A stretch of 62,459 nucleotides of DNA, counting the filler, from Hausera hauseri (lineage: Eukaryota), in the NCBI GenBank assembly GCA_046269625.1. It is 12 parts of 12 records of this genome, joined end to end, with 100 filler letters (N's around TTAATTAATTAA, not from the genome) between each part and the next. Parts side by side here need not be neighbours in the genome. Positions count along the whole stretch, not along the records: positions 1 to 5,780 come from JBJURY010190638.1; 11 more parts are not named here. One strand, given 5' to 3'. The position numbers and the translations under genes were made by a program. The notes below the pieces were generated by a model. It was not told where the DNA came from and did not search any database. It saw only the letters and a program-made list of their open reading frames with translations. This document shows positions 1 through 54,686 of this stretch, piece by piece; position 1 is the first letter of the stretch; each line of letters starts with the position of its first letter.

Positions 1-127
1 AATTTCCTTCTCCTTCCTTAGGCTCGTCATCCTCTGAGTCGTCCTTCCGTGTTGTTATTTTCTTATTTTTACGTCTGTGCAAAATTGAGGGCTTTCCTCG
101 CCGTTTTTGGTTATAATATCCAACGTG

Positions 128-900
128 TCATTCTACGTCATTCTTCCATTGATTTTCTTCATAGGCCTTTAACATTTTCCCGAAAGGTGTGATAATTGCA
201 ATTAAGATCTTACAGGAGAATCCTGTCAATGTGAATATTTCATATCCGTTTATAACAGCTTGACTTACTGCTTTAATTAATTGTACTAAGAAGTACATGG
301 CTAAGAATCCAGATGCAGCTTGTCCAAAAATTAAAATTCTTCCCAAAATCTTGTACAATATTTCTGAAGTCACCCTTTGGTAATGATTAGCGCCAAGGAG
401 AGATTCCCATTTAGCCTGATATCGCGTGTCATATACAACCGAGGCCATGGCTCGGTTTAATTCGTTAATTGTGCTCTCATCTCTGATTCATAGAAAGCCG
501 CTACTACTATATTTGGTTCTACATATTTTCCGGTATCATATTCAGCTCCACTACAGTGTCCAATATGCATGTCTAACTTTCCGGCTACCACTTTGTATGC
601 CCTGATTATTTTACTAACTTGCATTTCTAATTCCATATTATCTCACTGTACTCTTCCAGTCTCTCTAGCCTGTTTGCAATACTGACGTTCTAAGTTTATG
701 GGAATTGGAGGAGTTGTTGGTTTGGTTATTGAAGAATGTTCGTGTATTAATCCACAGTGAAAAATACTGCGGGACCGTCGTAACATACATTCCATTCCAT
801 CTAGAGATATCAGTTCTTGTTGCTGATATAAGAAGTATATAGTGACTGTTCCTAGCTGTTTTACTAACATAATTATTGTTAACAAATTGACTAACCAGTT
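128..900 (-). pseudogene. env: Chuvirus (Jingchuvirales)-like envelope glycoprotein, internally deleted
   Basis: N-terminal block ECMLRRSRSIFHCGLIHEHSS...CKQARETG...VAGKLDMHIGHCSGAEY...IVVAA and C-terminal membrane block FGQAASGFLAMYFLVQLIKAVSQAVINGYEIFTLTGFSCKILIAI match recalled chuviral G patterns. The central ectodomain is missing at about 485. Confidence 0.7.
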
Positions 901-1552
901 GGATTCATTGCCTCTATTTAAAGAGATATTTAGCATCATATCTTCTAACTTATTGGTCTCTTTTGCATTTTCCTCTTTTTCAAACAATTTAGTCCACTTT
1001 ATTTCTTTAGATATCTTTCTCGCAGCTTTTCTAGCTAATCCAATTGCCTTTTCAAATTCGTTTCCTTAATTCTTCCGTCGTATTGTTTGTCATAATTCTG
1101 TCAATCACTGTTTCGTCAGGGAGGGTGCTTTTAGATAATTTGAATCTCGAAGTTTTCATGGTCCGTGCTATATTATATATTAGTCTTTCTTTTTCGGACA
1201 GTATGTCACCTTGGAGTCCGGTATAGTTTACTATCCTAATTAAATCTCTCATTAGTTCTATCAGTTCTTCGTTATCTGAGCTCGGAGTAGGTACTGATAG
1301 TTGTCTCAGTTCCCTAATCAAATCTGCATTATAGTCTACTTCTTTTATTTTTCTTGGTCTTCCGACTGGCCGTTTTGGTTTTACTGGTGGTAAGGTTTCA
1401 CTCAGCGAGACCAAATTCTTATCATATTGCAGTTTGTCTTCATCCGTCTGTAAATACTCAAAGTACATTGCGGCATCCTGAATCCCCATGATTTTCCCAA
1501 CACAGTGCTTTGTATGTGTCTTCCTTATGGCTTCGTCTTTAGTCTGCTCACT

Positions 1553-1774
1553 GATGATAATTGCTATTATTCGATTTTCCTCGAGGGGTATAATATCTAC
1601 ATCTATTAGAAATTCTGGCTCATCTAATATTTTGCCTCTGAAATAAAGTCGATAATTAACTTCTTTTCTATTATCCTTATCAATTATCCGTTGTTTTATA
1701 TCCCCAACGGTAGTATAGGTGGTACATTGAAATTCCTCGTCGTCCATTATTTCTGATGATACCTTCACTTTAAT
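1553..1774 (-). other. Ubiquitin-like domain within the retroelement polyprotein
   Basis: IKVKVSSEIMDDEEFQCTTYTTVGDIKQRIIDKDNRKEVNYRLYFRGKILDEPEFLIDVDI follows the ubiquitin pattern (T-V-x-D-I-K-x-x-I, R-L-x-F-x-G-K-x-L-D); no C-terminal GG. Confidence 0.7.
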
Positions 1775-4640
1775 TTCCGCTTCTGGTTTATTTTTCAATA
1801 GTTTAGCGTATTCTGTTATTAGAAGCTTAGGTACGGCGCTGTATGCAGTGTTTTCACTGGATAACTTAGTCAAAGTTGGAATCAATTTCGTTAACTTTTC
1901 TTCACTTATGTTTATTTTCAATACATTGCTTAATTCCTTTTCAGTTAATGCGGGGTCAAGAAGCATTTGCACGTAGAATTTCGTCTTCTGTGCACCAGTA
2001 GGTGACTCATAAATATGTATTGGAGTTCTTTGACTTTGCTCGGTTAGACCTTGGAGATATTCATCCCATTCAGCTTCATTGTCTACGTCAGGTAACTCAT
2101 AGTTCATTAGTGCTGTATGTTCGACTTGGATTCTTTCGCGTAATTCGCTTAATTGCGGCTGTAGAATTTTCATAATGGATACCATAAATCCATCACCGTT
2201 TCCACAAGCTTGTTGTATCAGCTTTATTAATTGACACATTTCCTCTGGTTGTATCAAAGCATTTTCTTGATAATTAGTCACTTCGGCGATTCTGTTTCTT
2301 TGCCATTTCTGTATAAATTCGGTTTTATCATTCAATTCATATTCCGTAAGGGAATATTTGTTTTTATAGGTTTCTGTTTCTCTTAGTAATTCGTTCAATT
2401 GGCGTCGATTTTTCTCAGAGCGTAACCGGGTTTCTTTTATCAGACGTATCCGATTTGTTAGTCTTTTCTCTACTACTTCGTCAATTTCCGCCATTTCTGT
2501 CAACAATGAGATTAAATTGTACGTTTGGTTTAACACTTCGGCGTCTGGATCTATTGCGTCCATCAGCCTACTTACGAACTTGGCTTCATCGCTCGTCAGT
2601 TGCGGATCATTTCTAATTTTCGTTAATTCGGAGTGGCAATGTAGGTCAAAGCCTGGTGATCATTCCACTGGATTCTGTATATATTGCAGTGTCTGCGCGA
2701 GAGCAATCCGGTGGTTATTACATACTTCTATCTCCTGTACAGAGATTTCCTTTAACGGTTTCTGTATTAAGTTCTGCATTCCTTCCCAACGGATGTTTAC
2801 TAAGCTCCGCTGGAGATCACTTAGTTTATTTCTTTTTCTGTAGAAGTCCTTCTGCTCTATCATAGTATATATTTCTGTTACGTTGTCAGATCTTGATCCT
2901 GATTCATAAATTCAAGTTCTCGAAATGATTCGAATTTGATTCGCAATCTTGTTTCATCTTCCATCGTATCGATATCTGTTAGCATTTCTTCTAATTGTTG
3001 TTTCATTATCGGCTTAACCACAGCAAACACCCTTAGTCGTTCGTTAATCACTTCGGCTATAGAAGGTAACAAATTTATCCACTTCTCCAATTGTTTAAAT
3101 ATTTCTGGTTTAGCGTGTATAATTTTGTCCAAAGCCTCAAAAGCTTCTTTTAGTTCGTGATCGGGTATTCGTACAAATTCTAGAATTTGTCTCGTGTAGT
3201 TGTATTCCTCTTTATATTCATCTAGTTCGAGGAGACAGGCACGTATTTTTCTTTGTACTTCTACTTTTTCGAGGTGAACTATACCAATCTTTAAGTCGTT
3301 AATTTTGGCTCGTATTTCATTTTCTCTTTCGATACGTATTTTTAAATCTGTATATTTCTGAGGTTTATCCTTTATTATGCTGCACATTTCCAATAGAAAG
3401 AAATTATCGGTTTGGTCTATATTCAGTATATATAGGTTGGCATCAGTTAGTTCTTAAACTTGCTTATTATGAAGATAAGAAATTATCGCTTCTTCTATCT
3501 CACGTATCAATCCTTCTAAATTACGCCTTACGCGTTTTAGTCTTGGGTTGTTCTTAAGTGTGTTTAACAGTCATTGTGATTGATTAACCTGATCCAGAAA
3601 CGGTTCGTTTTTATTCTACCATATTTTCGTAAAATTGATCTCACTCGTCTTCCAACTTTCTAATTTATTTTCCCAAGTTTTTATCAAGTCTTGCGACGTT
3701 TCGTGCAGTTCATACTGTATGTCTTCTTTTCCTTTCTGGATGTCGGTTTTCAACTTCTTATATAACTTTTCTAAGAATTGTTGTTCATTCCTTGAGATGT
3801 CCAACTGCTTGCTCATTTGCCGAAGTTTTTGCAAGCTCTCAGGTAGTCCTTTTAGGTCGTTCAAAGTGTCTCTTATTTCTGTTAGTTCATTTGCATTTTT
3901 CCAAGATTTTCTGATCTTCGCAAATTTAATCGACTTTTCCTCTTTTGACTCCTCTTCAGTAGATGGTAATGGACATATTTCATTTATTTTATCAATATTC
4001 GTAATGCTTGTTATTTCCGTGGTGTCTTGTATTCTAACAGGAGTGTCTAACTATGTTTCATCTCTTATAGTGATAGTGAAATCTTCTTTTTCTACATCCC
4101 TTTTGATAGGTGATCGTGAACGAGTTCTCGACCTTTTTCTAAGAGAGGGGCTTTTACCTCTATTTTTTCGTTATCTTAAGTATCAGTAGTCCGATAAATT
4201 TGCTTTCAACCTCATCTGTTGCTTTGTCCTTATCTTTAGGTGCAGCCTTAGCATCCAATGTTACTTTGTCCTTATCTCTAGGTGCAACCTCGGTATTTGC
4301 ATCCAAATCTACGCTTGGAGACATAGTTGGCTTTGCCACTGGATTTAGGTTTTTCTTTCTGGCCATGTTAGTATTCTTAGGTGATAGCCTTTTCGTATTC
4401 CGCTGTTGGTTCTCTTAATCCGTGATAAACTTCTATTTGATGCAACTTTTCTTCGTATTCCTTTCTAACCTTGATTACTTGTGGATTATTAGATTCGCCC
4501 ATATTTTTTACACACCTCCGTAAGTCTTGCATTTCAATAATCATGCTTATGTCACCTCGTTTCCTGTAGATCCTTTCCAAATTATCTTTTATCATACTAG
4601 CTCTATTAGTCTCTGCAAATGATACACTCTGTGGATTAAG

Positions 4641-5672
4641 TCATGATCTATTTATGTGACCTTCTTTACCACACGAATAGCAAATTAAATTTCCGTCTCG
4701 ATCAATCCTTTGTGTTCCGTCTTCATTTAATGGTGATTTGTGTCGACCCATCATTTTACCTTGAGCTAGCTGAGCTTGCTTATCATTTCCATTATTTCTA
4801 TTTTCAAAATTTCGATTTTTTATATATCTACTCTTGTTACTTCTGTCATTACTTTGATTTATATTCGGATTATAACCTGTTTGGTAGGTATTTTGGTTGC
4901 CATTAAAGTTCCTATTATCATATCTCGTGTTGCGATTGGAGGCGTTTTGAGTTCTATTCTCGTAGCCTCGGTCCTTATTATTTTCGTTAAATCTTCTATT
5001 GTTCCTGTTTCTCTCACGATTGTCACGATCATTATTTCGGTCATACCTTTCATTCTGTCTGGTATACCTATCTAATGCCATTTCCAAGTTCTGAGCTAAT
5101 TGTAATGCCGTCTCGAAATTGTCTGGTCGGGCCAAAAATAGTTGCTTAACTAAATCTCTAGACCATATCCCGTTTATTAATTGTGTTGTCATCATGACAT
5201 CTAAATCTGGCGTGCTCGCCTTTTCTGCCGCTTCACGTTCTTCGGTTGTCTTTGCCTTTGCTGCGTTAACTATCCTTAGCATACTCACGTAACTATTAGC
5301 AAGCTTTTTTAATGCAAATGCAAATTGAGTAACCGATTCACCTTTTTGTTGTGTTCTGCTCTGAAAAGCCACCAGCTTTTGTTGTAACGTAACTGTCGGC
5401 AATAGTTTACGATTCAGAGCTCCTACTACAGAGGACCATGATTTCTCGTCATTAGTCAATTCACTATAGGCATCTGCAGCCAAATTTTTTAAATATAATT
5501 ATAATTGTTTTATCATGACTTCGGTTGCAAGACCGGCACCTTTTGCGTGCTATTTATAAGTTCGTAAAAAGTCTTTTAGTCCATCTGGGTCACCATTGTA
5601 TGCGGGTAAATTTAACGAGTCGAACGTGAATATATCAAGTTTCTGAGCAATCACTAGATTATCTGCTGCCAT
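4641..5672 (-). pseudogene. gag: Ty3/gypsy-type Gag (capsid, Asn/Arg-rich linker, CCHC knuckle)
   Basis: ATG at 5672 (MAADNLVIAQK) is in frame with ORF 4641-5483 through two stops. Capsid motif RTQQKGESVTQFAFALKKLA; knuckle CYSCGKEGHINRS* with TGA where copy 2 has the last Cys. Confidence 0.85.
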
Positions 5673-5780
5673 TTTAATTTTATTCGTTTTGTCTACTTCA
5701 GTTCTAGTAGGAACTTTAAATTCTCTAAGAGAGTTTAATGCAGTATCGAACAGATAGTGCTTATCTATTATATTATCTTC

Positions 5781-5880
5781 NNNNNNNNNNNNNNNNNNNN
5801 NNNNNNNNNNNNNNNNNNNNNNNNTTAATTAATTAANNNNNNNNNNNNNNNNNNNNNNNNNNNNNNNNNNNNNNNNNNNN
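5781..5880. other. Artificial contig spacer (44 N + TTAATTAATTAA + 44 N); also at 10717-10816, 17351-17450, 22955-23054, 27543-27642, 34556-34655, 38766-38865, 44478-44577, 49074-49173, 53837-53936, 58029-58128
   Basis: Eleven identical 100-bp spacers whose core gives stops in all six frames. Confidence 0.98.
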
Positions 5881-7800
5881 GAAATAAAAATTTCTATAAG
5901 GGGAATACTGCACAAGTACCACATTATTATTATTATTATCATTAATTGACAAAACATCAAAGCTTACCTTACTCACACCAACCATCGCACCAAATTCCCA
6001 ATCCCGCCCATTGCCAACAACAACTGCATCACCGTCACTCACTGTCGCCACCGAATAATTCTCATTCAATCGATGAACACACCGCACAAACGATCCGCAA
6101 CCGCATTGACTATCAGCCAATTCAGCCTTCACCAATTGCCGTGTCTGTCGACCTTCGTCCAACTTGTCCAATTCGAATTGGCAAACAAATGTCGGCTGGG
6201 CCGTTATCGAATGTTTTGGTGTCGTCATCAATCGTGTATGAAATACGGTGCGCATTGCCGCATTTGACAAACTGAACAGTTGCAGTAACCCATCGCGACA
6301 GCCAATGACGACACAATTCAATGATGGACAGAATGTCGACGATGTGACTTGTCCAATGGGGATTCGTCGACTGCGTTTTGCCGGATTATGGACGGCACAT
6401 AGCAACAGTCCATGGGTTGTTGATGAACTGTGTTTCCCACCGGCCAATAAAATGGTATCACCGGAGGGTGGCCAGATGATTTGTGCTCCAATGACAGCAT
6501 CTTTATCAATGGTAGTGTGTTGTGTTGACGATGACATGTTGATGATCCGACAATGCGGTTCATTAATTGACGTGACTGCAATAATATCGTTGCTATGGGG
6601 ACTGCATTGGATCGATCTGACTGGACCGGTGACGGCCCTTTTGAATGAATACGGTCGTAAATGGACATCATTTGTCATGGTCAATGCTGCTGCAGTTAGC
6701 CGATAAACACCGACAAATCCGTTACTGTATCCAACATAAATTCCATCATGAAATTGCCGTGGCCAATGAACGCATGTAGGAAATACTGAACACCCCTGCC
6801 CCCCTAACAACCGTCGATCGTACGCACATAAACACAACACTGAACTATCCGCCGATATCTCCATAAATTTCCCTGCGGTACTCACCAAATTCACTGGCAA
6901 TATCCTCACGAATCCATCGACCGTTGCAATACATAAATGGCCAATCAATGGCACCGTACGAATGACTGCCGGTAACGGCTGTGGTGACCAACAACAATCG
7001 GTCATCTTACCGAATTTCTGCATCATTATCACATGCAATCTCGGTAATTGGGCATGTTCTGTACCCATATTCAATTGTCCACAATCGATTATCTGTATCA
7101 TTTGTTCATTACTGCCATTTGTCCGACCATCAGACTCATCAATTCGATCAGCCAACTCCTTCATTATCCCCACAGCAATAAATTGTCGTCCGTGATGTAA
7201 TTCACTGTTCAACGGTGCCCATGACATACAGGAAACATACGATCCGACATTGATTACTGCACCCGATTGATTGTCGATTTTATTGGCCCGTTGAATTCCA
7301 TCGAACGCCGACAACTGTTCAATACGACTACCGCCTTTCACTCGTTTACTGACAGAGATCTTCTGTAAATATGCAATTGTCGTTGTCTTCCGTTGGGCAC
7401 TGAACACCTCCGTACAAATGGGCTTTGATGGAAACAAACATTCAGCAATTCGATCATGCAATGGACCACGTTCAATATCAATTCTAATACGTCAATTCGA
7501 ACCGTAATTCAATCACTGACAAGACAAACTCACAAAATTTTATCAGCCCAATATACTCGATTAGACAAATCACTGAACAACTGCATTTGGTCATTGAAAT
7601 GGGCTTTATAAATTTCAACACCCGATTGTGACTGACCATTTGTGTCGGATACGCAAATCGTTTGGAGCTGTTGTCAACAATAAATATCTCATTTCACTCG
7701 ATTTCCCTGCCATTCCATGTTCCAAATTTTATGTATATTTCATAAGAATCACTCGCAGTATTCTCATTCAACGATTTATTCCAATCTTCCTTCGCAAATC
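5881..7800 (-). CDS. WD40 protein, likely TFIIIC subunit (GTF3C2/Tfc6-like), partial
   Basis: Long ORF with WD-like blades (INVGSYVSCMSWAP, QFIAVG, FGKMTDCCWSP, VGYSNGFVGVY). A GT-AG intron at 7484-7533 extends the frame upstream; 3' end is cut by the spacer. Confidence 0.55.
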
Positions 7801-10716: not shown

Positions 10717-11234
10717 NNNNNNNNNNNNNNNNNNNNNNNNNNNNNNNNNNNNNNNNNNNNTTAATTAATTAANNNNNNNNNNNNNNNNNNNNNNNNNNNN
10801 NNNNNNNNNNNNNNNNCTGAGGATAAAATAATTGTTTTTCAATTCTGCATTTAAGATGGAATTCGAATATTCGATATTGTGGTTCGATAGATATAATGTA
10901 AAGTCCAGCAAAGGATGATTATCTCGCTCGTTTTGGCCGAAGTATACTTCGTGTTGATTGATACTTTCTTGGACAAATCTTCACACAAAGTGACATTTGG
11001 CAATCTGATAAACTGGTTCACATCATTGTCCCATTTCTTTTGACTGCGGACCAATCGGACACTCGTCTCAAGGATTTAGTGGAGAGCAGCAATTTCCAGT
11101 CTTCTGCAGCTCAGTATTCCACGGGATATTCATGTAATCTCCGCCATGTCAGCATTGTAAAAATAATATTCCAGTTCGGCAATCGATTCGTAAACACAAA
11201 ATGTACTACTACGTCTGCAGATGAAATCCGAACA

Positions 11235-14200
11235 TGAATGGAGGGCCATTTTGTCGGGGTCCCGCCTATGGGCCTTACGCGGCAGAAACGGAAGGCCGGC
11301 TGTGCCCAACCAAATGGGCCAAAGGGCACCGGCCGCTGTGGGCACCACATCAGCCCCCCCGTAGCAAAGTGAGAACTATGAAGATCAAAACAAACGGAAA
11401 GAAAAAATCTCTAAACAAAAAGTGTATGTGTCAGTTGGTCTTAGTGTGGACAAGACGTTGGATGACTTCTACTGATTTTTCCCTGCCATGCTTGCTAAAT
11501 GTGACTCTGCGTATTTTGTCTTTATGCCGTGTGTTTGCTTGCAGAGGTTGAAGTTGGGGAAAAATTGTCAGATTTTGTTGTGAGTGTTGTGTCATGCAAA
11601 GACGAGTCAGAAAGAAGAGAAGAAGAAGGCGAAGTAGGAAGAGAGCAAGAAAATGGAGAAGGCGAAGGAAAGGAGTTGGAAGGTGGTATGCAAGAGGTTG
11701 GAATGATGAAAGGGGTAGATAGAGAGATTGGTGAAGTCGAAGTGGTGTCTGGCGGAGGAGGTTTTGTAAAAGGAGAAAGCAAGTTGTCACCAGGAGATGG
11801 AGGAAGTGTTAGAAGGTTTGAGGATGCAAAATCGGATGGGGAAAAGGAGGTTGAACTGTCAGAAGAAATTGAAGTAGATGTCTTTGAAGAAAACGTAGGG
11901 GAAAGTGGGTTAAAGAATTGAGCAGAGATGGAAGGTGAATTATTGGATTGCTGCGCGTCATGTAAAGATGTTGGTGGAGAAGTTGTTTCGATGGGAGACG
12001 TATCTTCAATGAAGAAAGCCAGTTTAGCGTTGTTGATGTGGACTGTTACTTCTTTGTCGTCCTTGAGTATGATGATGTTGTGAGAGTGTAAACGAATTAC
12101 TTTGTAAGGGCCGACATACTGAGGTTGAAAACCGCACGGCGTTTGAATCTTTGGCCATACGAACTTGGCAGTATACAAATCGTCGGGTATGTAAGGTTTA
12201 TTTCCATATAATAGTCTACAAAATGAGTCTTTGCTGATCTCAGTGAAGTGTCTCTGTGCCGCTTGTATGGTTTCATTTGTAGGAATATTTTCCAGCTCAG
12301 CCAGCTCGAACAGTAATTTGATAGAAGTACGAAATAATGCTTCCGCAAGTGAACAGCCTGTAGAAGTAGACTGTGTGTTCCGCCAACCAAGCAGAACGTA
12401 CGGAAGGAGTGTAGTCCAACTGCAATTGGACTCAGCAAGGATTTTGAGAGATGTTTTCATCGTTCGGTGAAAGCGTACGAGAAGACCATTTGATTGGGGA
12501 TGATATGGTGACGTGTGAATGTGGTCAATTCCCAATCGATTGACAATAGCTTTAAACAGGTTGAATTCGAACTGTGGGTCTTGGTCCAAAATGATGTGGT
12601 GAGATAATTTAAACCTGCTGATCCAAGTGCGGATGAAAACGTCTGCGACTGTTTCTGTGTTGGTGCTCCGAAGCGAGACAGCGTCTGACCATCGCGAGGA
12701 ACGGTCCATCATTGTGAGGATGAACTGATGGCCGTTGTCTAAATGTAGTGGGCCGCCAAGATCAATGTGAACAGATTCAAAACGAGACGTGCAGGAAAAA
12801 TGATATAGTGGTGGCTTTAAGTGCTTAGTAACTTTGTATTTTTGGTATGCCACACACTGCCTAACCCATTCCTGCACGTCAGAGCGCATCAACGGCCATA
12901 CTACTTGGCGTTGTAAGAGTCGAAAAGTGTTATTTGCACCAGTATGGTGCAGCTAATAAATGTTGTTTAATGCTTCTTTTTGAAGCGATTCAGAAAGGAT
13001 GGCCTTAGGATTATTATGTTTGGAGGTGTCAAAGGACACACCGTCGATGGTTTTGCACGATTTAAAAGATTTAAGGATGTCAGGAGGTGACTGGTTTTGC
13101 TGAAGTTTGAATTGAGGGAAAATTGGTGTAAAATCAATCGAGCTGACCGATCGGGTCAAAATGTCAGCTACTAAATTGTCGACTCCGTTTAGATGCTTAA
13201 TTTTAAAATTAAATGCTGATAAATACGACATTTGCCTCTCCTGACGTGGAGAAGGCGATTTCATAGTAATAATTTGAAGCCAGGGCTTGCGGTACGTTTG
13301 TATTGTAAACGTTCTTGCACTTAGCAGATGCTTAAGTGTTTTACGGCAAGGACCATTGCAAGCAAATTTCTGTCAAAGGTAAAATATCTTTGCATTTGTG
13401 TTGTGAATTTTTGAGAAAAGAATTCTAATGGCTCATGGGATCCATTTTTAATTTGATGGAAAACAGCACATGCAGTTGTTGTGGATGAATCCGTAGTTAA
13501 GAAGAGTTCTGCATGAGAGTCTGGATAGGCCAGGATTTCCATAGTTTTTAGATTATCTTTAAGGTGATAAAAAGCGTTGACTAGCTTGGCGGTCCTTTGA
13601 ATAGGCTGTTTTTTCTTGCCAGAGCTTATCGATGCGAATGGAGCGGTTAGAGTGGAGCGGTGTGGAACATACTTATGAATAAAGTGCAAGGTTCCGAGAA
13701 AAGAACGCATCTCTGTGGATGTTCGTAGTAGTTGTACGTTTTTGAGCTGTGTGATGCGCTCTGGCTGAGGTAAATGTCCGGAGGAGCTAATAACATGTCC
13801 TAGGAAGTTGACCTTATGTTGCAAAGAATAGCATTTGGAGAAATTAATTTGCAAGTTGTTTTGGTGCAAGCGTTGGACGATTAAACGTAAGTGCTCAGAG
13901 TGTTGTTTCTAGGAAGATGATTCAATTAAGATATCATCGATATAGGGATAAGCAAAGTCTAAACCTGAGAGAACTGTGTCAATATGCCTTTGGAAGGCCT
14001 GAGAAGCGCTACGGAGTCCAAAAGGCATGAAAAGGCATTCGAAAAGGCCGAAAGGTGTAATGGCAGCCATTTTTGGAATGTCTGCCGGGTCCTCCGGAAT
14101 TTGGTGGTATGCTTTGTGTAAATCAATGCAGGAAAAGATGGTCGAACCATAAAGCCTGTGAAAGATATCGTTGATTAATGGTAGTGGGTAGGAATCCATT

Positions 14201-16770
14201 GTTGTTATGATGTTGAGTTGGCGGTAATCACCGCATGGGCGAAAGGTACTATCTTTTTCTAAAACCACATGCAGTGGTGAAGACCACGACGATTTGGGTC
14301 TTCTGATTATTCCTGATCTTTCCAGTTCGAGAATCTCAGCCTCTACTGCCTGTCTGCGGCGAGGCGATAGCGGGGAGTCCTTTTGACGTATTGTTCTTTG
14401 ATGTGCTGATACTATGTGATGGAAGGTGGATTGAGGTGGTACGAATGATTTGTCCTTTTGCAACAGACGCGTGCATGAAGACGAGATGTATTTCTGAAAG
14501 TCAGAGGGCAACGATGAAAAGTTATCAGGCGGTGTCGATGCATCGTGACTGGTTGCAGTTGAGGTATGAGTTGTAGGCAACGTTTTGCGACAAGTGGTAT
14601 TTGGTGCAGGATGTTCGTGTTGAAGATGGTGTTGGCAGCTGTACTGTCAGTAATAGGTGCACCACAGTTGACAATATCGTATTTGTTGCCGTAATAAAAA
14701 TTTCTATATAACGAATGATTATAAAAATAATTTAAATTGGGTGGTCACCGAAATGGTGCTAATTTGATTAAAATTATTGCCGCTGTTTAAGTAACATCGT
14801 TGCCAGTCTACAAGTAAATTATAGTGGGACAGAAAGTGTTTGGGAAATTTGGAAGTGTGAAAGTTAATTTGGTAACAAAAGTTTGTAAAGGTTCACCGGA
14901 CGCAGTGAACAATTGCTTTTTTGAAGTGAAATTGGTTTGATTGTGCTGTGTTGGTGGTAGTAAAGAGATTGCTGCGCCGGTGTCTATGAGAAAATTGATA
15001 TTTTGCTTTGTTGGAATGACGACTGCCGCTGCCAACGTGAATACAGTAAAAAGTGTGTCAGCTATCGTTTTGTAGTTTGTTGCCTTTGCTAGAACTTGCT
15101 GTGTGTCCTAGCGGCGAGATCAGTTTTTTGTAACCGGTGAGTTTGGCCTACTGTTTTGTGTGGGTTTAATGATGTTGATTTTATTGTGCGTGTTGCAGTT
15201 ACAGCCAGGTAGGCATTTTTGTGCTTTTGTTCCAAATTTTGCGTGATAGATGCAAACAATGTTGCTTGTATGAAAATTGGGGAGTAAAATTTACAACCGA
15301 TGCAGCATTTCTGAGCATTATTACCGAATTTGTTATGGTAGTAGCAAATAGATGACCGTGCAGGCGAAGGCGACCGTCTTTGTCGCTGATTAAATACATT
15401 AGGGGAAGCAGCCCTAGAAAAACTCCGTCGAGGCAGCGTTAACTCATTTAATTTGTCGTTTATGTTTTTAATATTTTTTGCAACATTTCATTTTCTGTGC
15501 GTAATTGCGCAATTTGTTGCTACAGCATTGCACTTTGTTATTGTTGGTTTGTTGTTAATGCCGCAGAGACAGTTGGTGTTGTGTGTGAGTGCAGCACTTC
15601 ATAAGCTTTGTCTGCTAGTTCGGCTAACTTTTCCAGTGCCGTGGAGTCCTCGACCACAGTGAGCAAAGCTCTTATTTGAAGGGCAATGCATTTAAAAAGT
15701 AACGACGAAGAAGTTTTATACTATGCTCAGATGTTACGCTAAGGGTATTAAGGTAAGACAAAGATGTGCACAAGAATTCAGAAGGCTTTTGAAAGCCCAT
15801 AGCGTTGTCATTGATGAACCTTTGAATGATAGTGTCGATTGACGGCTCAGTGAGCTTAAGAACGGCATTATAAAGTTGAGCATATGGATCGGTGTGGTGA
15901 AGAATGTCGATAATGTTTGTAATTTTAGTTTTGATGGAAGCAGGTAAATGAAAAACACGCTGTTGGCTTTGTATAAGCGGCGACGATGTTTTGTGATTAG
16001 AGCCAGAATTGATGCAGTTTTAGCCATGTTTTGGTAAAATTTTGGCTGTCGAAAAAGTATTCTGTGCAGGGTGAATGAGTAGAAAGTGTGTGTTCTGTCG
16101 GAGTGGTTGAAGCAATTTGTTTGGGTAGAAAAGTGATGGTGATCAGTAGTTTGGTGGGTTTGTCCGTAGTATCAGTAGTGGCTGATGAATCCATGCCACC
16201 ACGGATGCGGACGTGTATATGAAGACAGATATAAGATGAAGAAGATTGCAGGGTCCCAACGAGAGGTACCGTGGAGTCGTGGTATGTGCGATAAAAGTCA
16301 GATGAGCGAAGAAAAGTGGAGATAAAGTTGTAGATGTCTGTGGTGTTTGCGTGTGTTGATGCAATTGTGTAAATGTGTTGGTTGTTTAAAAAAGAGAGAA
16401 AGTAAGGTGGGCGTATAACCAGGGGCGTGTATTGGGGCGTCAGCGAGCGGTGCCGTCCGACCCAATGGTATAGGGTAGGCGGCCCGGAATTCAGCCTTGC
16501 CGCAGCGGATCCCAAACGTCGGGGTGACCGAGTTCCCCAAAGGAATGGTAGGTTCGGGACGCGTATTATCAGACATGTGTATTTGATGACTATTGGAATT
16601 GGACGGTTTCAATCAGAGTATGAATATAGTCTTTGCTGGTTTGTGAAACCCAAGCTTTCTCTCCAGGTGGAATGTAAAATGACAGGAATCCCGATTTGAC
16701 GATGAATAAAACTGACGACGCATGTCGGATAGGTGGCACTTCGGTTGGGCAGTATTTAAATGCTATAACA
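11235..16770 (-). mobile_element. Ty3/gypsy LTR retrotransposon family A, near full length, degenerate
   Basis: Gag about 15100-16200; protease FLIDTGAAIS (14808-15035); RT RPCGDYRQLN...YIDD (13909-14580); RNase H TTDSS (13321-13869); integrase VHIDL..LDQ..HPQSNG (11522-12892). G7 PPT at 11354-11360; Trp-like PBS remnant near 16517-16531. Confidence 0.92.
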
Positions 16771-17724
16771 GTTGAGCACTGAGTATTGAGGGCTGCGATA
16801 TTACTGTTAACTCGGAGTACGTATTGACAGTTTGAGAGTTTTGCTTTATAGATGATTCTTGATTATGAACGCACGTTTTATAAGATATGTAAGTTTTATG
16901 AAGAAAGTATGAGCACTGTGGCGATAAAGCGATATTAGCCATGAGTAGAAGTCTAGCATCTTTACTATGTATAATGTTTTTGATTTTTCCGTTGTGTCTT
17001 AAAATACCTTGTGCATCGCTATTTAAGCACGATGCATGTATTGACCATTCATGACAAATGAAAGGGGAGCCGTGCATTATAGCATTTATAAATGTACAAG
17101 TACTTCTGAATAAGAAAATCTTTGACTTATCTAATCTAAATTCAGTTGCATTTGTTACATATACATTTACGAAAAAACAAAATCTCAGTAGGGCTTATGA
17201 TAAAATGTCTGAAATGGGTAAAATGAAATGCTCTGGTTGATTTATCAATAATGAGCAATAATTACCGTGTTCCGCTCTATATGGTCCATCCCGGTACGTC
17301 GCCGGTGAATATCCTTGATGGATGTTTCTGGCCGCCGGAGGACTGCTGAANNNNNNNNNNNNNNNNNNNNNNNNNNNNNNNNNNNNNNNNNNNNTTAATT
17401 AATTAANNNNNNNNNNNNNNNNNNNNNNNNNNNNNNNNNNNNNNNNNNNNTATAGTTATGATCGACAAGTTGCTGCTTTGTGTCACTTTGACAAGTCACC
17501 AACCTTCAAGCCGTAACAGCTGTCAAAATATCCAGTTTTCCAACGCTTTTGATATTTTTGAAATTTCTAATATGATTATTCTATCTAGAGTAAGAAGTGT
17601 TTTTTATTTACCTTCTCAAGCAATTTTTTAGGGTTGCTTAACTGTAAACACAGTAAATTAATTTAAATAAAATCTGCAATAAAAGAAGTACAAGGAAAAA
17701 GATAGTTGCAACATCTTAAAGGGA

Positions 17725-18912: not shown

Positions 18913-19779
18913 CTGCCTGAGGCGAGGATTAAAACAAGAACAAAGTAAATCCATTAAAATGAGATGAAAGAAACATTGTAAAACTCTGCTCGCTTTGAAG
19001 AGTCACTCTGAGCGAATCTCTATGTTAATAAGCAAGGCAATTATAAGGTTGCCGGAGGCGAGTAACAAAGTTGCAATTATCCCAATAGAGGGCCCTTTGA
19101 AGCAACTTAGTTAATATGCAAATGCTGCCTGAAAGAGAAGCTTTGATCTATCACAGATGGCCGGAACTCTTGTGATCTCACATCTGCTCAGAAACAGAGA
19201 GTTGATTGGTTTGAGCAGCAAACCCTCCCATAGGGGGAAAAGAAGATGGTTATAAAAACCCACTGTTCCGACAGGAACAGGGCCAAGTTCTACCAAGACA
19301 TCTGACGAGCATTGAGGATCACGGACTGAAGCAGCTTGGAGGAAGACGGGGTCGCCCGAAGGAGTTGTTAGATCGTGTCGGTCTGAGGCGGAGTTGGACT
19401 TAGTTCTCCTTCGTTTGTCGAGACGGGGCACGTCTACTTCTTCCGTTGACTTGGTCCAGGGCTCGATCCAAAACCCCAATGTTTCCAGATTCGGATCAGC
19501 TGCTATTTCCTCAGGAGAAGCCTGTATTTCCCTCCTGGAAAACAGGAAATATGCCTTTTGCCCTCGTGAAAACGTCCGAGGACTGTCTCGAACCCAAGGT
19601 AAAAGGACTCCCCGTCCAAATGCTCTAAATAAAATATTTTATCAGATCAGGCCATCAGCACACAAAATAAATTTAAGGAAGCTAAAAAACTAGGTTCTGG
19701 AGGGATCGCTCAGAGACGGCTCAGAGAAGCAGGAGTGTTGAGGAAAGAAAAAGCATTGGCTTGAGTTGTGAAGAGGTTG

Positions 19780-22689
19780 CAGACCTGGGCATTTAACGGC
19801 CCTCGGGCCAGATACGGCCCTTTGCCTGTCCCTGTCCGGCCCGCGCCCCCGTCCCCCCTCCAGTCAAAAATAAAAACGGATTTTGGTGTGCATGCGATGC
19901 AGCTGTCTTTTATTTTGAAAGGGCCTGACGCATTGTTTCTGAATGCGTCACATAGACGCTAACGCACAGTGACTTGATGCAAGCATCCCAATCCCTGATC
20001 AACACAAAATGTCGTCTCACGGTAAAAAAAGAAAAGTTGATTTAGAATGCCGCGTTTTCAACAAGGCATGGACAGCGACATATTTATTTACAGAGGTCAA
20101 AGGTAAAGCTGTGTGTTTAGTTTGTGGTGTGTCAGTGGCTGTGCTAAAGGAGTATAATATCCACCGTCACTACGTGACTAAACACGGGGAGAAATACAAG
20201 AACTTTTCAGAGAAAGAGCGCGCAGCTGAGTCGTCTGTGTTGCTAGCCAAGCTGCAATCTCAACAAACAATTTTTACAAAACGTTTGACATCCAGAGGTG
20301 CTGCAGTCAAGACAAGTTTTGTCATATCGCACAAGATTGCTAGAAAGAGCAAACCCTTCTCTGATGGAGAGTTTATCAAGGAGTGTTTGGTGGAGTCGTC
20401 TGCGCTAATTTGTCCCGAGAAAAAAGACGCTTTTGAGAATGTCTCGCTCTCCCGCCGCACCGTAACGAGGAGGATTGAGGACATCGCGAAAAACCTGGTG
20501 CTACAGTTGAAAGACAGCGTGAATGACTTTGAGTACTTTTCCCTGGCTTTGGATGAGAGCTGTGATATACGGGACACTGCCCAGCTGCTCATCTTCATGC
20601 GCGGGATCAGTGCAGACTTCAGAATCACAGAGGAGCTGGCAGACATGCGGTCAATGAAAGGGACAACCATGGGGAGTGATCTCTTATCTGAGGTAAATGC
20701 ATGTCTCGAAAGCTTGGGGCTGAAATGGGACAAACTGGTGGGCGTGACAACAGATGGGTGTCCAAGTCTCACAGGAAAAAAAGTTGGTCTATTAAAGCGA
20801 ATCCAGGACAAAGTGGCAGAAAAGAACTCTGATCAGAAATTAACTTTTTTTCATTGTATTATACATCAGGAAGTGTTGTGCAAGTCAGTGTTACAAGTGA
20901 ATCACGTTGTTGATGTTGTAACTAAAACAGTTAACTTTATCAGATCAAGGGCACTGAATCATAGACAGTTTGTTTCACTTTTAGAAGAAATGGAGACTGA
21001 CCACCGTGACCTAAGCTACCACACACACATCAGGTGGCTGAGTTTGGGAAAAGTGCTGAAAAGATTCTGGGACCTGAGAGAGGAGATTCGGGAGTTCTGT
21101 GTGAGGAAAGGACATGCCATCCCTCAGCTTTCAGAGGCAGACTGGCTGGCAGATCTTGGTTTTACTGTTGATGTGACTGCTCAGATGAATGAACTAAATG
21201 TGAAACTGCAAAGCAAGGGCCTTTTTGTGTATGAAATGTACAGTGCAGTCAAGGCCTTCAGTAGGAAGTTGCAGCTTCTGTTGAGCCAAATCAGGGATAA
21301 TATTCTCACTCACATGCCAACACTGAAGCAAGTCACCCCATCAGCAGATCAGCTCCAAAGGTTCTCATCCATGTTAGAAGCACTGCATGTCGAGTTTTTA
21401 AGGCGATTTCAAGACTTCAAAACTGTTGAGAGTGAAATGCACATGGTGTCTTCTCCCTTCACCTGCAGTGCTGATGATGCATCCAGTGATGTTCAGATGG
21501 AACTCATTGACTTGCAGTCTGACACACTTCTGGCAGACCGCTTTGGGTCAGTCCCACTGCCTGAGTTTTACGCTTCACTCAAACAGGAGAACTTTCCGCA
21601 CTTAAGGAGACATGCTCAAAAGATCCTTGTGCTCTTCGGATCTACATATGTATGTGAGCAGACATTTTCAGTGATGAAGTTCAACAAATCCAGATACAGG
21701 TCTTCCATTACTGATGATCACCTCGCAGCTGTCCTGCGCATAGCCACATCAGACATTCAGCCAGATTTCAATGCACTTGTTGATGCCCAAGACAGACTGG
21801 ACTTTTCTCATTGAAGAAGTAAACTAGTATAGAACATTATATTTGACACTTTATTTTCCTTTTAGTACTTCAGTTGTGGAGTACTTTGTTTGTAGTAGAG
21901 GATTTTGCAATAGTCAGAATATTTTTGATCCTTTGTCAGTTCTTACAGGTTTTCAAGTATTCAAAGGTAGTCTTTTTCTTTTCTATTTCTCTTCAAACAC
22001 AAGTCCCCCCCTCCTCATCCATCCCTCTGCACACTGCTTTGCTCTCTGTTCTCACTGTCCCTTTCCACCCTCCTAATTAAGATAGGCCGAGCTCCTGGCT
22101 AAAACAACAGTCTGTCAGAGGATCGCTTTCCTTAATTTTGTAGTTATTGTATTGTTACCTAAAGTGCTGTTACTTTTGTGTGTACCTCTTTTTAAGGTTT
22201 TATCGTTCAAAGTACTTTGTGGTACTTTTTCCCCATTACTTTCAATCTGATTGGGGGTACTTTTGTGTTATTTTGTCCTTTTATTCAAGTTGCAGCACTT
22301 CAGGTCCTTCATGTCTTTCCAATACAAAAACCATTTATTGTTCATGTACAGTTGATCAGTTGTTCTACAATACAAAACATTTCAGTTGTGAAGATATTAA
22401 CAAGTTAAAAATAAAATTCAAATGTGATGACTTTGTTTGTTTAAACTATTAATTTGATAGAATCAGTATTAATTCTCACTTCAACCTAAACCACAATTTG
22501 TTCATGTTTGTAAATATATTAATTTTCTTATTTAATACCAAACAAATCTGATTTAAATATTTTACTATAAAAAGAAATACAATGAGAAAACATAAATCTA
22601 TATTAAATTTGAGTCATTGCTGTTTCGGCCCTCCAACACATTTCAGATTTTTCATGCGGCCCCCTGAAGAAATTAATTGCCCACCCCTG
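19780..22689 (+). mobile_element. Full-length hAT transposon, Buster/Charlie/SPIN group
   Basis: Imperfect TIRs CAGACCTGGGCATTT ... AATTGCCCACCCCTG, subterminal CGGCCC motifs, and 3' flank CAGTAGAG fitting the nnnTAnnn target consensus. Confidence 0.9.
20009..21814 (+). CDS. Intact hAT transposase (SPIN/GTF2IRD2-like), 601 aa
   Basis: BED-like CLVC...HRHYVTKH, LALDES, TTDG, CIIH, RW, CEQTFS; uninterrupted ORF. Confidence 0.95.
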   Translation: MSSHGKKRKVDLECRVFNKAWTATYLFTEVKGKAVCLVCGVSVAVLKEYNIHRHYVTKHGEKYKNFSEKERAAESSVLLAKLQSQQTIFTKRLTSRGAAVKTSFVISHKIARKSKPFSDGEFIKECLVESSALICPEKKDAFENVSLSRRTVTRRIEDIAKNLVLQLKDSVNDFEYFSLALDESCDIRDTAQLLIFMRGISADFRITEELADMRSMKGTTMGSDLLSEVNACLESLGLKWDKLVGVTTDGCPSLTGKKVGLLKRIQDKVAEKNSDQKLTFFHCIIHQEVLCKSVLQVNHVVDVVTKTVNFIRSRALNHRQFVSLLEEMETDHRDLSYHTHIRWLSLGKVLKRFWDLREEIREFCVRKGHAIPQLSEADWLADLGFTVDVTAQMNELNVKLQSKGLFVYEMYSAVKAFSRKLQLLLSQIRDNILTHMPTLKQVTPSADQLQRFSSMLEALHVEFLRRFQDFKTVESEMHMVSSPFTCSADDASSDVQMELIDLQSDTLLADRFGSVPLPEFYASLKQENFPHLRRHAQKILVLFGSTYVCEQTFSVMKFNKSRYRSSITDDHLAAVLRIATSDIQPDFNALVDAQDRLDFSH

Positions 22690-22743
22690 CAGTAGAGTAA
22701 TACGTCCATATGAGTCTTCTTTCACTTCTTTGTCTGGACGAAT

Positions 22744-22810: not shown

Positions 22811-23652
22811 TTTGTCCTGGGGGTAACACGTCTGTAACCTTCCACCAATGTAATTTTCCGTCTGTCAACAACTCGCCCCACTACTCTCCCACCCCCGTTC
22901 TTCCTTCTTCTTCTTCTTCAGTTTTATATTGGCGGTTGGCAACAACTTGCTGCGNNNNNNNNNNNNNNNNNNNNNNNNNNNNNNNNNNNNNNNNNNNNTT
23001 AATTAATTAANNNNNNNNNNNNNNNNNNNNNNNNNNNNNNNNNNNNNNNNNNNNCAAAAGGCAGTCGGAAATAATGAAAAATCTGTTGTTGTTGTACTAA
23101 ATACATGGTAATGTCAAAGAACATGAAGACCTTTAGATCCTGATTTCCCATCAATTTACTGGAGAATCATTTACCAAAGATGGCGATGCCGAAAGCCCTA
23201 CACGAATCATAAAAGAACACGAAACTGTAATTAATGGAAAATGCACTTATAATCCAAAAAGTTTTGCCACGTAACATATTCGACAAAAACCACAGTTGCA
23301 TAGTTTACTGTGACAAAAATATTCGAAGTAAAAATGTCTGTCTGACTTGACAAATTGATTTTGTTCATTAAACAAGCCGCAAAACGGCATTTGAAAAAAG
23401 TCAACAGAAAATTTGTTTACTCATCAAATTTCCTTAAGAGTCAGGACGAAGTAAATATCGTGGAATTTTTGGAATAATCTACTATTCTCGGTACTTCTGT
23501 ATCACTGGTATGGATCAACAATATTACAATTTGTCGATCATTTTTCTGATTGGTCAAAATGAACTGGATGAATCGACCAGTCAAATAATGCAAAAATAAA
23601 CAATCATTTCATTAGATAATTGAGTTTGTACATTTTTTCTTATGTGACAACT

Positions 23653-24435
23653 ATGAGTCACGTTATAACCTCTCCAACGACCATTCCATGGTCCAGCCCT
23701 GCCGCCATTTTTGAAGCATTTAAACCACCCGAAGGTCCTCCTGTAATGCCGTTTATTGCCAAAGTCATTGCACTATTTCTCTACTGTACTATATCTCTGT
23801 GTGGTTTTATCGGTAATGCCAGTGTTTGTTACATCATCGTGAAGGATTTGAAAATGTCTGTGACTAATCTGTTCCTCTTCAATCTCAGTTTGGCCGATAT
23901 TTTGATGGGGATTTTCTGTGGACCGTTTGTGATGCTTCGCGACTTCGTTCTCGGCTACTGGCCATTTGGAACGCCTTTATGTAAAATGGTTCAAACAGCG
24001 CAGGGAATAAGTGTGTTAGTCAGTGCGCTGACTCATTTTGTTATATCAATCGATCGCTTCGTTGTTGTTTATCGACCATTAAGACCAAGGATCAGACACC
24101 GATCAGCGGTGTATATATTGATACTCAATTGGCTTATGGCGGCAGCTTTCGTTTCTCCATTGACGATTGTTAATCAGACTGTTGGCAATGAAACGAAATT
24201 CTGTCAAGAAGATTGGACTTCGTTATTTTCATACAACAACACCGATGATATTTTCAATGCTGCTCTGTTTGCTAATCGAACATATTCGCTGTTATTACTG
24301 ATGATGCAGTATTTTCTACCTCTGTCCGTTTTGGTGAGCACATACTCGGCCATTGCGTTTCGAGTTTGGATTCAGGAAACTCCGGGTGAAGTTGATGCTA
24401 AGCGAGATCAGAGAATTGCAAAATCAAAAAGAAAG
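23653..24435 (+). CDS. Neuropeptide GPCR (RYamide/luqin-receptor-like), exon encoding TM1-5
   Basis: GNASV, TNLFLFNLSLADIL, YWPFG..LC, ISIDRF, ICL3 VW..ETPGEVDAKRDQRIAKSKRK, then donor GTAAGT. Confidence 0.85.
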
Positions 24436-24770
24436 GTAAGTAACAAATGTTTTTGTCTCCCCCTCCCTCTCTCTCTGTCTGTACCATCAATTTGACGAAA
24501 TTCAATTTAAAAATTTGTCAATAGACTCTCATAGGTAAATTGATCTTCCATCAACATTTGGCTAATTTTCTCAGACTTCTCTTATTGTTTTCTTTTTCAG
24601 ATAAACTCCTAAATTTTATCTTAAATATGAGCATAAATAATAATAATAATAAACAATACAGTAAAACTACATGTTAAGTGCATTTAATGAAACGTCCATC
24701 AAAGTATCTTAGTCATTCCAATTCAAATTCAAAAATTCAAGAAAATTTTATTAGCCAAAACAATCCATAT

Positions 24771-27642: not shown

Positions 27643-29376
27643 ACCTGAATCGACTAGGAAATCTATGTGGCGGGATGTTGGTAATGTAGTTACTGCTTTT
27701 ACTGTAAATACAGCGAAAGTTTTCGGCTGGTAGAAACTGAAAAATGGCCTTCGCCAGGACTCGCCGTACGTTCTGGCGGCGGAATTAGTTTTTTGCAGTG
27801 GTGAACATGGGCGGCCGTTAGAAAACGAGATAGTACATTCGACGTTTGTATGTTGTGTGCTACTTCTAAAGGTACAACCGGGAATACACTTATGTGCCTC
27901 ACTCTTAAATTTTGCGTGGTAGGTGCAAATAGGATTGTTAACTTGATACTTTTGGGTGTAAATGCGGCACCCAATATGGCATTTTTGTGCTTTACGAGCA
28001 AACCTGTCATGGTAAAAACAGATCAGCGATCGTGCAGGAAACGGTGACCGACCTCTGGATACAGAGCGTGTGCGATCGTAGGTGGAACTCTTTCATTCAA
28101 TCTATCATTAATATTGTTTATTGTATTATGTAGGGCTGTTTTCGGCCCACAACTATTGTATTTAATATTCTAATGTGTTGTCGTTTGCTGCGAGTGCTGC
28201 AGAAATGATAGGTTGTGTGTTCAGGTGTAAGAACTCGTACGTTTTGTCTGCAAGTTCGGCTAACTTATCCAGCGCCGTCGATTCCTCGATGACGGTAAGC
28301 AGGACTCTGATCTGGATCGGTAATGCGTTTAAAAAGTAACGTCGTAAGAGATCGAAATTATTTTGTTATGTAACGCCGAGTGTTTGTAGTTGAGCGAGAG
28401 AGGTTCTAAGAAAATATGATGTTTTTTGTGTACCCATAGCGTTACCGTTGAAGAATCTATGGATTATAGAATCCATAGACGGTACCGTGAGTTTCAAAAC
28501 TGCATTATAGAGATAGCTGTACGGGTCGGATGTTGAAATATATCTAAAATATCGTGAAGAAAAGTCTTTACTGTGTTTGGTAAAAGGCAAGGTAAACCAT
28601 GGGCTTTGGCAGATGGATCAGTAATGTTTTTAGACTGTAGATAGAGTTTGTGAAAGTTAAGCCAGGTTTTCCAGGACTTTTCGTGATCAATAAAGTATTC
28701 TGTGCACTGAGGAGTATGTTTGCATGGCAGGATGGAAGGTGTATAAGTGGCAAAAGTAGATGGTCGTTGATTTTTGGTGAAAAGTGAAAGGTGATGGTTT
28801 AGAGGTAGTTTTGTCAGTAGTGTCAATTGTGGGCGAAGATTCCATGCCACCACGAATGCGAATGTGTACATGAATAATGACATAACGGGGTGAAGGAACA
28901 AAAAGGTCGCGAAAATTGACATTAATTACAGGTAAGTTGTTGTAATTAAAGTAAAATTCAGGAAAACGAGCAGTGTAGCATATAATTATGCAAGAAACGT
29001 GTCTATAAAACACGTTGTATCGAGTGTGAGAAAATGGCGATTATTTAGGAAGAATAAAATCGGGAGTCGGTGTTGGCCCTAATGGTGACGCGACGGACCG
29101 TAGTGTAGGATCCACTGACATTGGACAGAGGGTTGGGCAGTCGGTCACGCTGTGATATACTCAAAATTCAAGGGTTTTGTTAAGCGTATATGAACAAAAA
29201 TCTGAAGTATCTAAGGAAATGGGTCTTAAATGTCAACCACAACGGAGGGCTAAGTTTAAAAGGGGCAATGTTGTCGACGGCGGACATGTTAAGAACAAAA
29301 ATGAGAAAAACAGAAAATAGAAATCGCTAAGAATCAAATTTAAAAATGGTTGCCGGGCGAATAGTACGCAATGACA
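27643..29376 (-). mobile_element. Gypsy family A, 5' part (terminal region and degenerate gag)
   Basis: Homologous to 15000-16400 (HVHIRIRGGMESS..TDK, CTEYFID..KTW, ESTALDKLAELADK). A TG-starting terminus lies at 29376. Confidence 0.8.
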
Positions 29377-29399
29377 AATCTCACCTCACCGTGTATCCG

Positions 29400-30050
29400 T
29401 TTCACCGATGAGTATAAATGGAATCGTTCATAAATCCCACCAGATTGAATGTTTTCCGAACAGATGATAACAAATCAGCGAACAAATTTCGGAAATTAAG
29501 TTATTTCGACGATTTACAACACCCAACCAGAATACTCCATAAACATGTTACTGCTATACCACGTAAAGTTTCGGCTGTTCTTCCGGCTTGCCAAAATGAA
29601 TTTGGTAAAATTGCAAAGTTAAGTAATTTTCCAAGGCTATCACTTTTGAAATTTCCTTCGGAATTGAAAAACCCTTCCATATTTGACGTTAATTTCATTG
29701 GAATTATAAAATTTCTTAAGCGTAATTCAATTTCCTGTACTTTAGCTAACGTAATGTGTAATAATGAAAGTGTATCGATTAATTGTCCAAGAACAGGACC
29801 AGCACTTATCAAAAGTTTACTGCACATACATCGTCCCATACTGTTTGCAGACATATTAGGAGCTTTCTTTAATAATTCTGATAAAACATCGGCAAAATGT
29901 TCATTTAATGACAGTGCATCGCGAAATTTGACTAAAATTAAACTAAATTCGTAATTTAAGACCTCGACATATTTTTCATTTGAATCTTGAGATTCATGTA
30001 AAGAAAAGAAGAGCTGCAGAAAATGCAGTATAGCCAAACGTTTCGCAACT
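29400..30050 (-). pseudogene. DNAAF5: DNAAF5/HEATR2 internal fragment
   Basis: SAGPVLG...ELRLR...NSEGNF...LPNSFWQAGRTAETLRGIAVTCLWSI matches the HEATR2 WxAGRTAxxxR motif. There is no proper start, and a stop occurs at 29501. Confidence 0.7.
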
Positions 30051-32940: not shown

Positions 32941-32954
32941 CTATTTTGTTGGCA

Positions 32955-54476: not shown

Positions 54477-54686
<210 letters not shown>

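Follow-up and report, generated by a model that had tools for sequence, protein, structure and literature searches.

A decayed, probably Env-first Ty3/gypsy element in Hausera hauseri, likely a new member of a published retroelement layout

How is a retroelement copied whose Gag is followed by a long accessory region and an envelope glycoprotein (Env), with no pol in between? This question is raised by positions 1-5780 of the window, a stretch of 62,459 nucleotides from Hausera hauseri that consists of a chain of unrelated contigs with N spacers between them. A sequence-only reading had taken this locus (copy 1), together with a second, diverged copy (copy 2), for a new retroelement architecture in which pol is placed elsewhere or borrowed in trans. 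Since the window joins unrelated contigs, 1-5780 makes up a single complete contig, both ends of which lie within the element, and neither end has an LTR. What it holds is very probably a decayed, truncated copy of a Ty3/gypsy LTR retroelement of Burro type that is abundant and likely organized as Gag-X-Env-PR-RT-RH-IN in one frame (X being the accessory region), with the copying enzymes likely encoded shortly beyond the point where the contig stops. The Gag-accessory-Env-Pol layout having already been published in flatworms, copy 1 probably represents a further member of this known group and no novel type of element.

From Gag to Env in two decayed copies

The gag of copy 1, on the minus strand like all the features of this copy, starts at the ATG at 5672, and its frame does run on past the knuckle, to 4377, as had been read. 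The N-terminal retrotransposon Gag comprises a capsid region (5040-5672) with two in-frame stops and an Asn/Arg-rich, low-complexity linker (4683-5039), followed by a CCHC knuckle (4641-4682; zf-CCHC, E 0.011). Pfam Retrotrans_gag recognizes it only at E 0.088, and a direct homologue search among long proteins found nothing for Gag or for X; a profile built from the Gag of seven relatives matches 5615-4971 with an iE of 2.7e-26, and in phmmer the Env-first polyproteins described below are the top 7 of 11 matches. Gag alone is not diagnostic, the relatives' profile giving P0089, with no Env annotated, 90 bits vs 85 for copy 1. The single knuckle of the earlier reading exists as one position, broken in both copies: the place of its last cysteine is a stop (at 4643) in copy 1, and the second cysteine is missing in copy 2. 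The order of Gag, long accessory region and Env is real, with pol absent between them; the claim of one polyprotein fails for copy 1 itself, whose reading path is not open (10 stops and five frame changes). Copy 1 is dead, decayed and truncated by its contig, and capable of none of the steps proposed below.

About 1,265 codons separate the knuckle from a hydrophobic, signal-like segment, which exceeds every relative (291-868 in the eight with a knuckle). Some 1,200 residues of unknown protein had been read here; the length holds, and a ubiquitin-like domain makes the region not wholly unknown. Its first part (2027-4640) is charged and predicted to be helical, contains stops and frame changes, and belongs to no family, with no Pfam match below E 0.05. 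Positions 2512-2063 match the unnamed protein P0001 at 33%, this 150-aa match being the one that a library of 1.84 billion yielded for X; most of X matches nothing, and about 1,000 residues are unexplained. Single-sequence folding of its 535-aa frame gave an unusable model (pLDDT 38). Comparison of the two copies, proposed earlier as a check, gave pN below pS in X and purifying selection on the knuckle-to-X junction; X was under protein-level constraint in the past.

Towards Env, X holds a conserved four-helix domain (1796-1987), common to Env-first polyproteins and modelled as four helices with a pLDDT of 53-81 per block, directly before a ubiquitin/SUMO-like domain (1541-1774), and then a basic GRP motif (1349-1381), which we take to be AT-hook-like. 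The module formed by the helices and the ubiquitin-like domain is a recurring part of the Env-first accessory region: it is found, whole or in part, in 8 of 12 Env-first proteins (duplicated in two), and all five polyprotein matches of the copy 1 module are Env-first polyproteins. GRP motifs of like kind follow the ubiquitin-like domain in P0069, P0073, P0062 and P0060. X probably carries host-interaction modules (a helix bundle, a ubiquitin-like domain and a basic motif). The helices may recall TFIIS-N/LEDGF integrase-binding domains; such a likeness was absent from Pfam scans (six members), from the best 60 of 417 PDB rows and from fold searches with the module, all of which were filled by the ubiquitin part. 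Should the helical domain, which no paper found in the literature names, prove to be a fold that binds integrase or chromatin, the element would encode a targeting module of its own, and this would deserve a study in itself. A BCL2-like domain before Env, hinted at by PMC6431247, had no Pfam or PDB sequence match, nor had a Smc-like coiled coil, MATH, BIR or ankyrin in the charged, helical-looking X.

Env begins with the hydrophobic internal segment (829-885; hydropathy 1.81 over 19 residues), an equivalent of which precedes Env in the relatives. The viral glycoprotein that had been read after it is confirmed: its two pieces match the viral fusion glycoprotein PF24664 with E 4.6e-10 and 4.3e-13. 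It is akin to the fusion glycoproteins of mononegaviruses, and its presumably gB-type ectodomain between signal and membrane anchor is present as remnants. The N-terminal remnant (475-828) covers PF24664 positions 61-175, its 11 matches all being Env-first polyproteins, and the C-terminal one (182-460), which carries the anchor (307-251) as well as another hydrophobic stretch, covers positions 519-638. About 370 residues are missing in total: about 45 after the signal, where the PF24664 match starts at 61 vs 5-7 in most relatives, and about 330 of the ectodomain near 465. Signal to anchor spans 192 codons vs 554-571 in 11 relatives, and 4 cysteines are left in these remnants vs 14. The contig stops 102 codons past the anchor; this cytoplasmic tail or linker (1-181) runs off the contig end with no LTR or protease reached, its alignment with P0074/P0075 stopping no more than 3 codons short of that end. 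A single stop after the anchor is lacking in most related contigs there (depth 444 of 480).

Copy 2, on the plus strand of another contig, offers an LTR-like stretch of 847 nt with TGTTA...TAACA ends (54911-55757; no partner LTR in the window), a primer-binding site (PBS) of tRNA-Arg type (55760-55771; 10 of 12 bases match the 3' end of Arg-CCG in supplement 1 of PMC13524379), and a decayed gag with about 108 capsid codons missing, the knuckle and the start of X (56170-58028), where the contig ends. Its amino-acid identity to copy 1 is 43-60% in five segments, with the same Gag-to-X junction. This copy had been held to make the layout a family trait, which stands as regards the shared junction, the LTR-like stretch and the PBS; the copy breaks off after roughly 1 kb of X and is silent on Env and beyond.

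The place of pol in relatives

The long relatives come from proteins selected for similarity to RT and for a size of more than 1,750 residues, a pool in which elements with a separate env frame could therefore not appear. Among the 120 RT matches listed, Env stands before PR-RT-RH-IN, in one frame, in 12 of the 12 PF24664-bearing polyproteins. Both Env pieces of copy 1 match 11 Env-first polyproteins and nothing else, and copy 1 scores 27-53 bits against its relatives vs at most 5-12 for 20 shuffles each. The first protease motif lies 147-659 residues past the anchor in 11/11 relatives, and no such motif precedes the signal. P0060, P0062, P0065, P0067-P0069 and P0071-P0075 are unnamed, intact polyproteins (2,627-4,057 aa, from metagenome/assembly records) with homologous Gag and Env and, in many cases, the module; they differ from copy 1 in their shorter X and in an identity of only 22-37%, and several also have additional protease-like sequences, ankyrin repeats, C2H2 fingers or membrane segments at the C-terminus, none of them visible in copy 1. 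The best PDB match of P0073 is Ty3 Gag-Pol. With copy 1, one more diverged family is added to the Env-first gypsy elements.

Within the two copies, the reported lack of protease, RT, RNase H and integrase after the knuckle was borne out: profiles from the nearest relatives scored below 0 bits at best in the six frames of either copy, vs 56-313 bits in the positive control, a separate contig (45826-49073, plus strand) with a decayed PR-RT-RH-IN and a protease without a preceding knuckle. This pol contig represents a sister family of copy 1 in the same Env-first clade. Its 13 best RT matches are Env-first polyproteins (51-57% vs at most 48% for others), with which it groups at an SH-aLRT of 97 in a quick tree without bootstrap, read without the row 'window_gypsy2_RT' (wrong frame). 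Its PR-RT spacer is conserved with relatives; a dUTPase-like identity for this spacer was rejected, with no Pfam dUTPase match. Related contigs in run X1, possibly the source of the window, number 13,273 on copy 1 and 4,998 on the pol contig (uneven, with peaks at conserved motifs, which marks it as a sister family), figures of depth and not of copy number. No locus related to copy 1 was found in viral or metagenome contigs, nor any contig or read joining the Env of its family to pol.

That pol is placed elsewhere is thus supported, relatives carrying it after Env in the same frame. In an intact member of the family, genomic RNA driven by the LTR and primed by tRNA-Arg would be translated into one polyprotein. 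By way of the internal hydrophobic signal ahead of Env, the Env ectodomain alone would enter the ER, host signal peptidase cutting the signal, and from the anchor onwards the chain would again be cytosolic; the element's own protease might then release the pol enzymes and process Gag and the accessory domains. A membrane glycoprotein inside a single polyprotein raises the testable question of how it is processed.

A different, improbable reading is a non-autonomous family, LTR-gag-X-env-LTR, which supplies capsid and envelope and relies in trans on the pol of a related, autonomous element for its copying. The 5.7 kb devoid of pol would fit it, as would the want of a physical link to pol, the two Env stretches already lost in copy 1 and the abundance, in the same runs, of a related pol family that could serve as helper. 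However, the contig ends before the point where pol starts in 11/11 relatives, its tail has kept homology to the linker between Env and protease in intact elements, with no LTR there, and pol lies downstream in 12/12 Env-bearing relatives; the earlier proposal of borrowing in trans is without support and unlikely. Just as improbable is its fuller form, a high-copy enveloped satellite retroelement (LTR-Gag-X-Env-LTR without pol) that takes RT and integrase from the sister Env-first family and has its own host-interaction module in the 1,265-residue X (four-helix, ubiquitin-like and AT-hook-like). A truly pol-less enveloped family would constitute a novel type of dependent retroelement, but the evidence speaks against one.

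Much harder to credit is a canonical gag-pol-env element whose pol was deleted internally or has diverged too far to be seen in X. Deletions are evident in both copies, but the constrained knuckle-to-X junction is common to both, intact Env-first polyproteins likewise have the module after Gag and ahead of Env, and the relatives' pol profiles score nothing in X, where a divergent pol had been named in advance as the finding that would tell against a new layout. In neither copy do protease and RT directly follow the Gag knuckle with env last, as in a canonical gag-pol-env errantivirus, and this origin is largely refuted already. An assembly chimera, in which several copies or families of repeats were merged into a single contig, has a similarly slim chance. 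It might be suspected from the very high repeat content, and no contig piece among those listed spans all of 1-5780; yet Gag, module and Env come in the order and at the distances seen in single intact proteins (e.g., P0074, P0075, P0062 and P0073), related contigs cover 30/30 bins of copy 1 in both runs, and the Gag-X junction is repeated in copy 2.

Known elements with env between gag and pol

Placement of copy 1 in BEL/Pao, whose Gag we assume to have several knuckles, is not indicated, as its Gag matches are of gypsy type, with one knuckle and no pol before env. BEL/Pao elements with a chuvirus-like glycoprotein are described in mosquitoes (Dezordi et al., PMC7642597); they are reported to be LTR retrotransposons that captured the same glycoprotein family, on a BEL/Pao backbone vs the Ty3/gypsy one of copy 1 Gag and the relatives' pol.

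The architecture had been called new, and a match to a described family with this layout was what its proponent would have accepted against it; such matches are planarian Burro/GYPSM1 (PMC6431247, section 7) and the GAG-ENV-POL errantiviruses of Nematoda, Bryozoa and Platyhelminthes (Chary and Hayashi, PMC13524379). As described in that section, Burro/GYPSM1 shares with copy 1 a CCHC-knuckle Gag, a long accessory region with a ubiquitin/SUMO-like domain and, after it, a mononegavirus-fusion-like Env, which in Burro stands in frame between gag and pol. By the same description, the only basis of comparison, it differs in having two or three knuckles vs one, and in MATH, BIR, ankyrin and BCL2 domains without a match in copy 1 (PMC6431247). 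Burro elements are giants of over 30 kb; copy 1 is known from a 5.8 kb contig. The GAG-ENV-POL errantiviruses, too, place env after gag and ahead of pol in a Ty3/gypsy element, and resemble the element described here in an ectodomain flanked by signal and anchor and in a tRNA PBS; PF24664 would correspond to their HSV/gB type; an accessory region and a single fused frame are absent from their descriptions in the passages of PMC13524379 at hand. None of the nine flatworm rows in that source has an Arg PBS (eight give 'none' and one 'others'), whereas that of copy 2 is of Arg type.

Gag, region X and Env in copy 1, and a second copy

Among the 12 contigs that are chained through N spacers in this window, the first (1-5780, a complete contig; copy 1) and another at 53937-58028 (copy 2) carry diverged copies of the same element. 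Copy 1 is read on the minus strand, where gag, from the ATG at 5672, is followed by an Asn/Arg-rich linker, a single knuckle position (4682-4641) and an accessory region of about 1,265 codons (region X). A hydrophobic segment at 885-829 comes next, and after it two Env pieces, matching profile positions 61-175 and 519-638 of the fusion glycoprotein family PF24664. This Gag-X-Env layout, as described by the sequence-only reading, is real, and the second copy that it reported with the same Gag-to-X junction is indeed found in copy 2, which also has an LTR-like stretch ending TGTTA...TAACA and a primer-binding site matching the 3' end of tRNA-Arg at 10 of 12 bases. The gag ATG is preceded by 108 nt of contig 1, which lacks an LTR-like repeat at both ends, so that each end lies within the element; the far end, 102 codons past the Env anchor, still aligns with the linker of P0074 and P0075, two of the unnamed long RT-bearing proteins used for comparison.

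The open polyprotein frame claimed for copy 1 did not hold, as its reading path contains 10 stops and five frame changes. Its Env is short by about 370 residues, with 192 codons from signal to anchor versus 554-571 in 11 relatives (signals of P0074 and P0075 placed by eye) and four cysteines versus 14. Copy 1 is, in short, a dead, truncated copy, and the single stop after its Env anchor is absent from most of the related contigs aligned there. Between the two copies, pN is 0.27 and pS 0.74 (267 codons in five segments picked by tblastx), giving a dN/dS of about 0.11, a rough figure because dS is close to saturation and only conserved segments were compared. In all three segments after the knuckle pN is also below pS, which argues that region X was formerly a constrained protein.

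Relationship to known Env-first elements

The layout had been proposed as a novel architecture, and this is contradicted by published elements. Planarian Burro/GYPSM1 (PMC6431247) encodes in one frame of 4,873 aa Gag, CCHC knuckles, Smc, MATH, ubiquitin/SUMO-like and BCL2-like domains, an Env resembling mononegavirus fusion glycoproteins, and PR-RT-RH-IN, and is said there to be the first case of an env placed in frame between gag and pol; PMC13524379 describes GAG-ENV-POL elements of Nematoda, Bryozoa and Platyhelminthes, nine of them from flatworms, whose Env is of the gB type. The element of copy 1 appears to work like both and is at most a candidate member of Burro proper.

Direct searches with X and Gag among proteins and viral/metagenome contigs gave almost no matches. 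The RT of a decayed PR-RT-RH-IN on a separate contig (44578-49073; the pol contig) matched 339 proteins of 1,751-5,000 residues, a pool chosen for long RT-bearing proteins, and among the best 120 of these PF24664 was present in 12, in all of which it lies ahead of PR-RT-RH-IN in the same frame (Env-first). The 13 best RT matches (11 Env-first proteins and two shorter ones without Env) show 51-57% identity, the next best at most 48%, and fall into a single clade with the RT of the pol contig (SH-aLRT 97 in a quick tree, disregarding one misframed control row); the twelfth Env-first protein, P0107, is placed outside this clade. Each Env piece of copy 1 matches 11 proteins, all Env-first, and part of X matches five of the Env-first proteins; seven of the 11 Gag matches, the top ones, are also Env-first, Gag not being diagnostic alone, as the long RT-bearing protein P0089 scores equally well on the relatives' Gag profile. 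These matches score 27-53 bits versus maxima of 5-12 bits from 20 shuffles each and are independent of the RT. Copy 1 is best regarded as a new, diverged representative of already known Env-first elements.

Several intact relatives carry additional modules. Extra protease-like copies occur before the main protease and/or after the integrase in P0060, P0062, P0064, P0065, P0068, P0069, P0074 and P0075, most of which have C-terminal membrane segments after the integrase; P0060 and P0069 have C2H2 fingers, and P0073 ankyrin repeats between Env and protease. The helix plus ubiquitin-like module is duplicated in tandem in P0067 (510-659 and 762-919) and P0073 (496-625 and 686-849). The Env-first polyprotein P0072 is labelled in its source as a Flavobacteriaceae hypothetical protein, probably because eukaryotic DNA ended up in a bacterial genome bin.

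Position of pol

The statement that no pol lies in between is upheld: neither motif scans nor profiles for PR, RT, RNase H and integrase derived from eight close relatives matched any of the six frames in copy 1 or copy 2. With these profiles the pol contig, as a positive control, scored 56, 298, 151 and 313 bits, respectively. The distance from the anchor to the first protease-type motif is 147-659 residues in 11 of 11 relatives, with no such motif ahead of the signal. The domain order is observed in copy 1 (Gag-X-Env) and in intact relatives, and pol in cis behind Env is very probably the arrangement of copy 1's element, with no read joining the family's Env to pol. A dependent family devoid of pol is considered unlikely, and a pol lost by deletion or hidden highly improbable; an assembly chimera is given equally little credence.

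With pol in cis behind Env, an LTR-driven RNA primed by tRNA-Arg would encode one polyprotein, as expected from general retroelement and membrane-protein biology. Its internal signal would take the Env ectodomain into the ER and would itself be cleaved by signal peptidase. The anchor would bring the chain back to the cytosol, and the protease downstream of the anchor would liberate the pol enzymes and process the Gag-X part.

The pol contig appears to represent a sister family. It shares the A-rich composition of the two copies, with an A content of 39% against their 41-43% and the 27-30% of three other stretches, and no knuckle was found before its protease. Contigs from two sequencing runs align to copy 1 (13,273 in X1; 1,289 in X2) and to the pol contig (4,998 and 528) in their thousands, and therefore both are abundant repeats, this depth not being a copy number. 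Ahead of its protease the pol contig has a hydrophilic, non-Gag stretch, and its repeat cover sets in only near 45630.

Other features of the window

Decayed gypsy pol pieces at 10817-17350, 27643-34555 and 34656-38765 are related to each other and belong to another family, their best matches not being Env-first proteins. An apparently intact hAT DNA transposon (19779-22690) contains a 613-aa frame (19973-21814) matching PF18658 and PF05699, with terminal-inverted-repeat-like ends and a G+C content above that of its contig's start. A fragment at 59834-60415, matching DNA polymerase B of organellar/viral type (PF03175, E 1.2e-05), possibly derives from a large DNA transposon. Host-like genes are found at 5833-7491 (WD40-type), 23620-24495 (rhodopsin-family GPCR), 31288-32094 (weak PUB-domain) and 49617-51512 (ankyrin-repeat).
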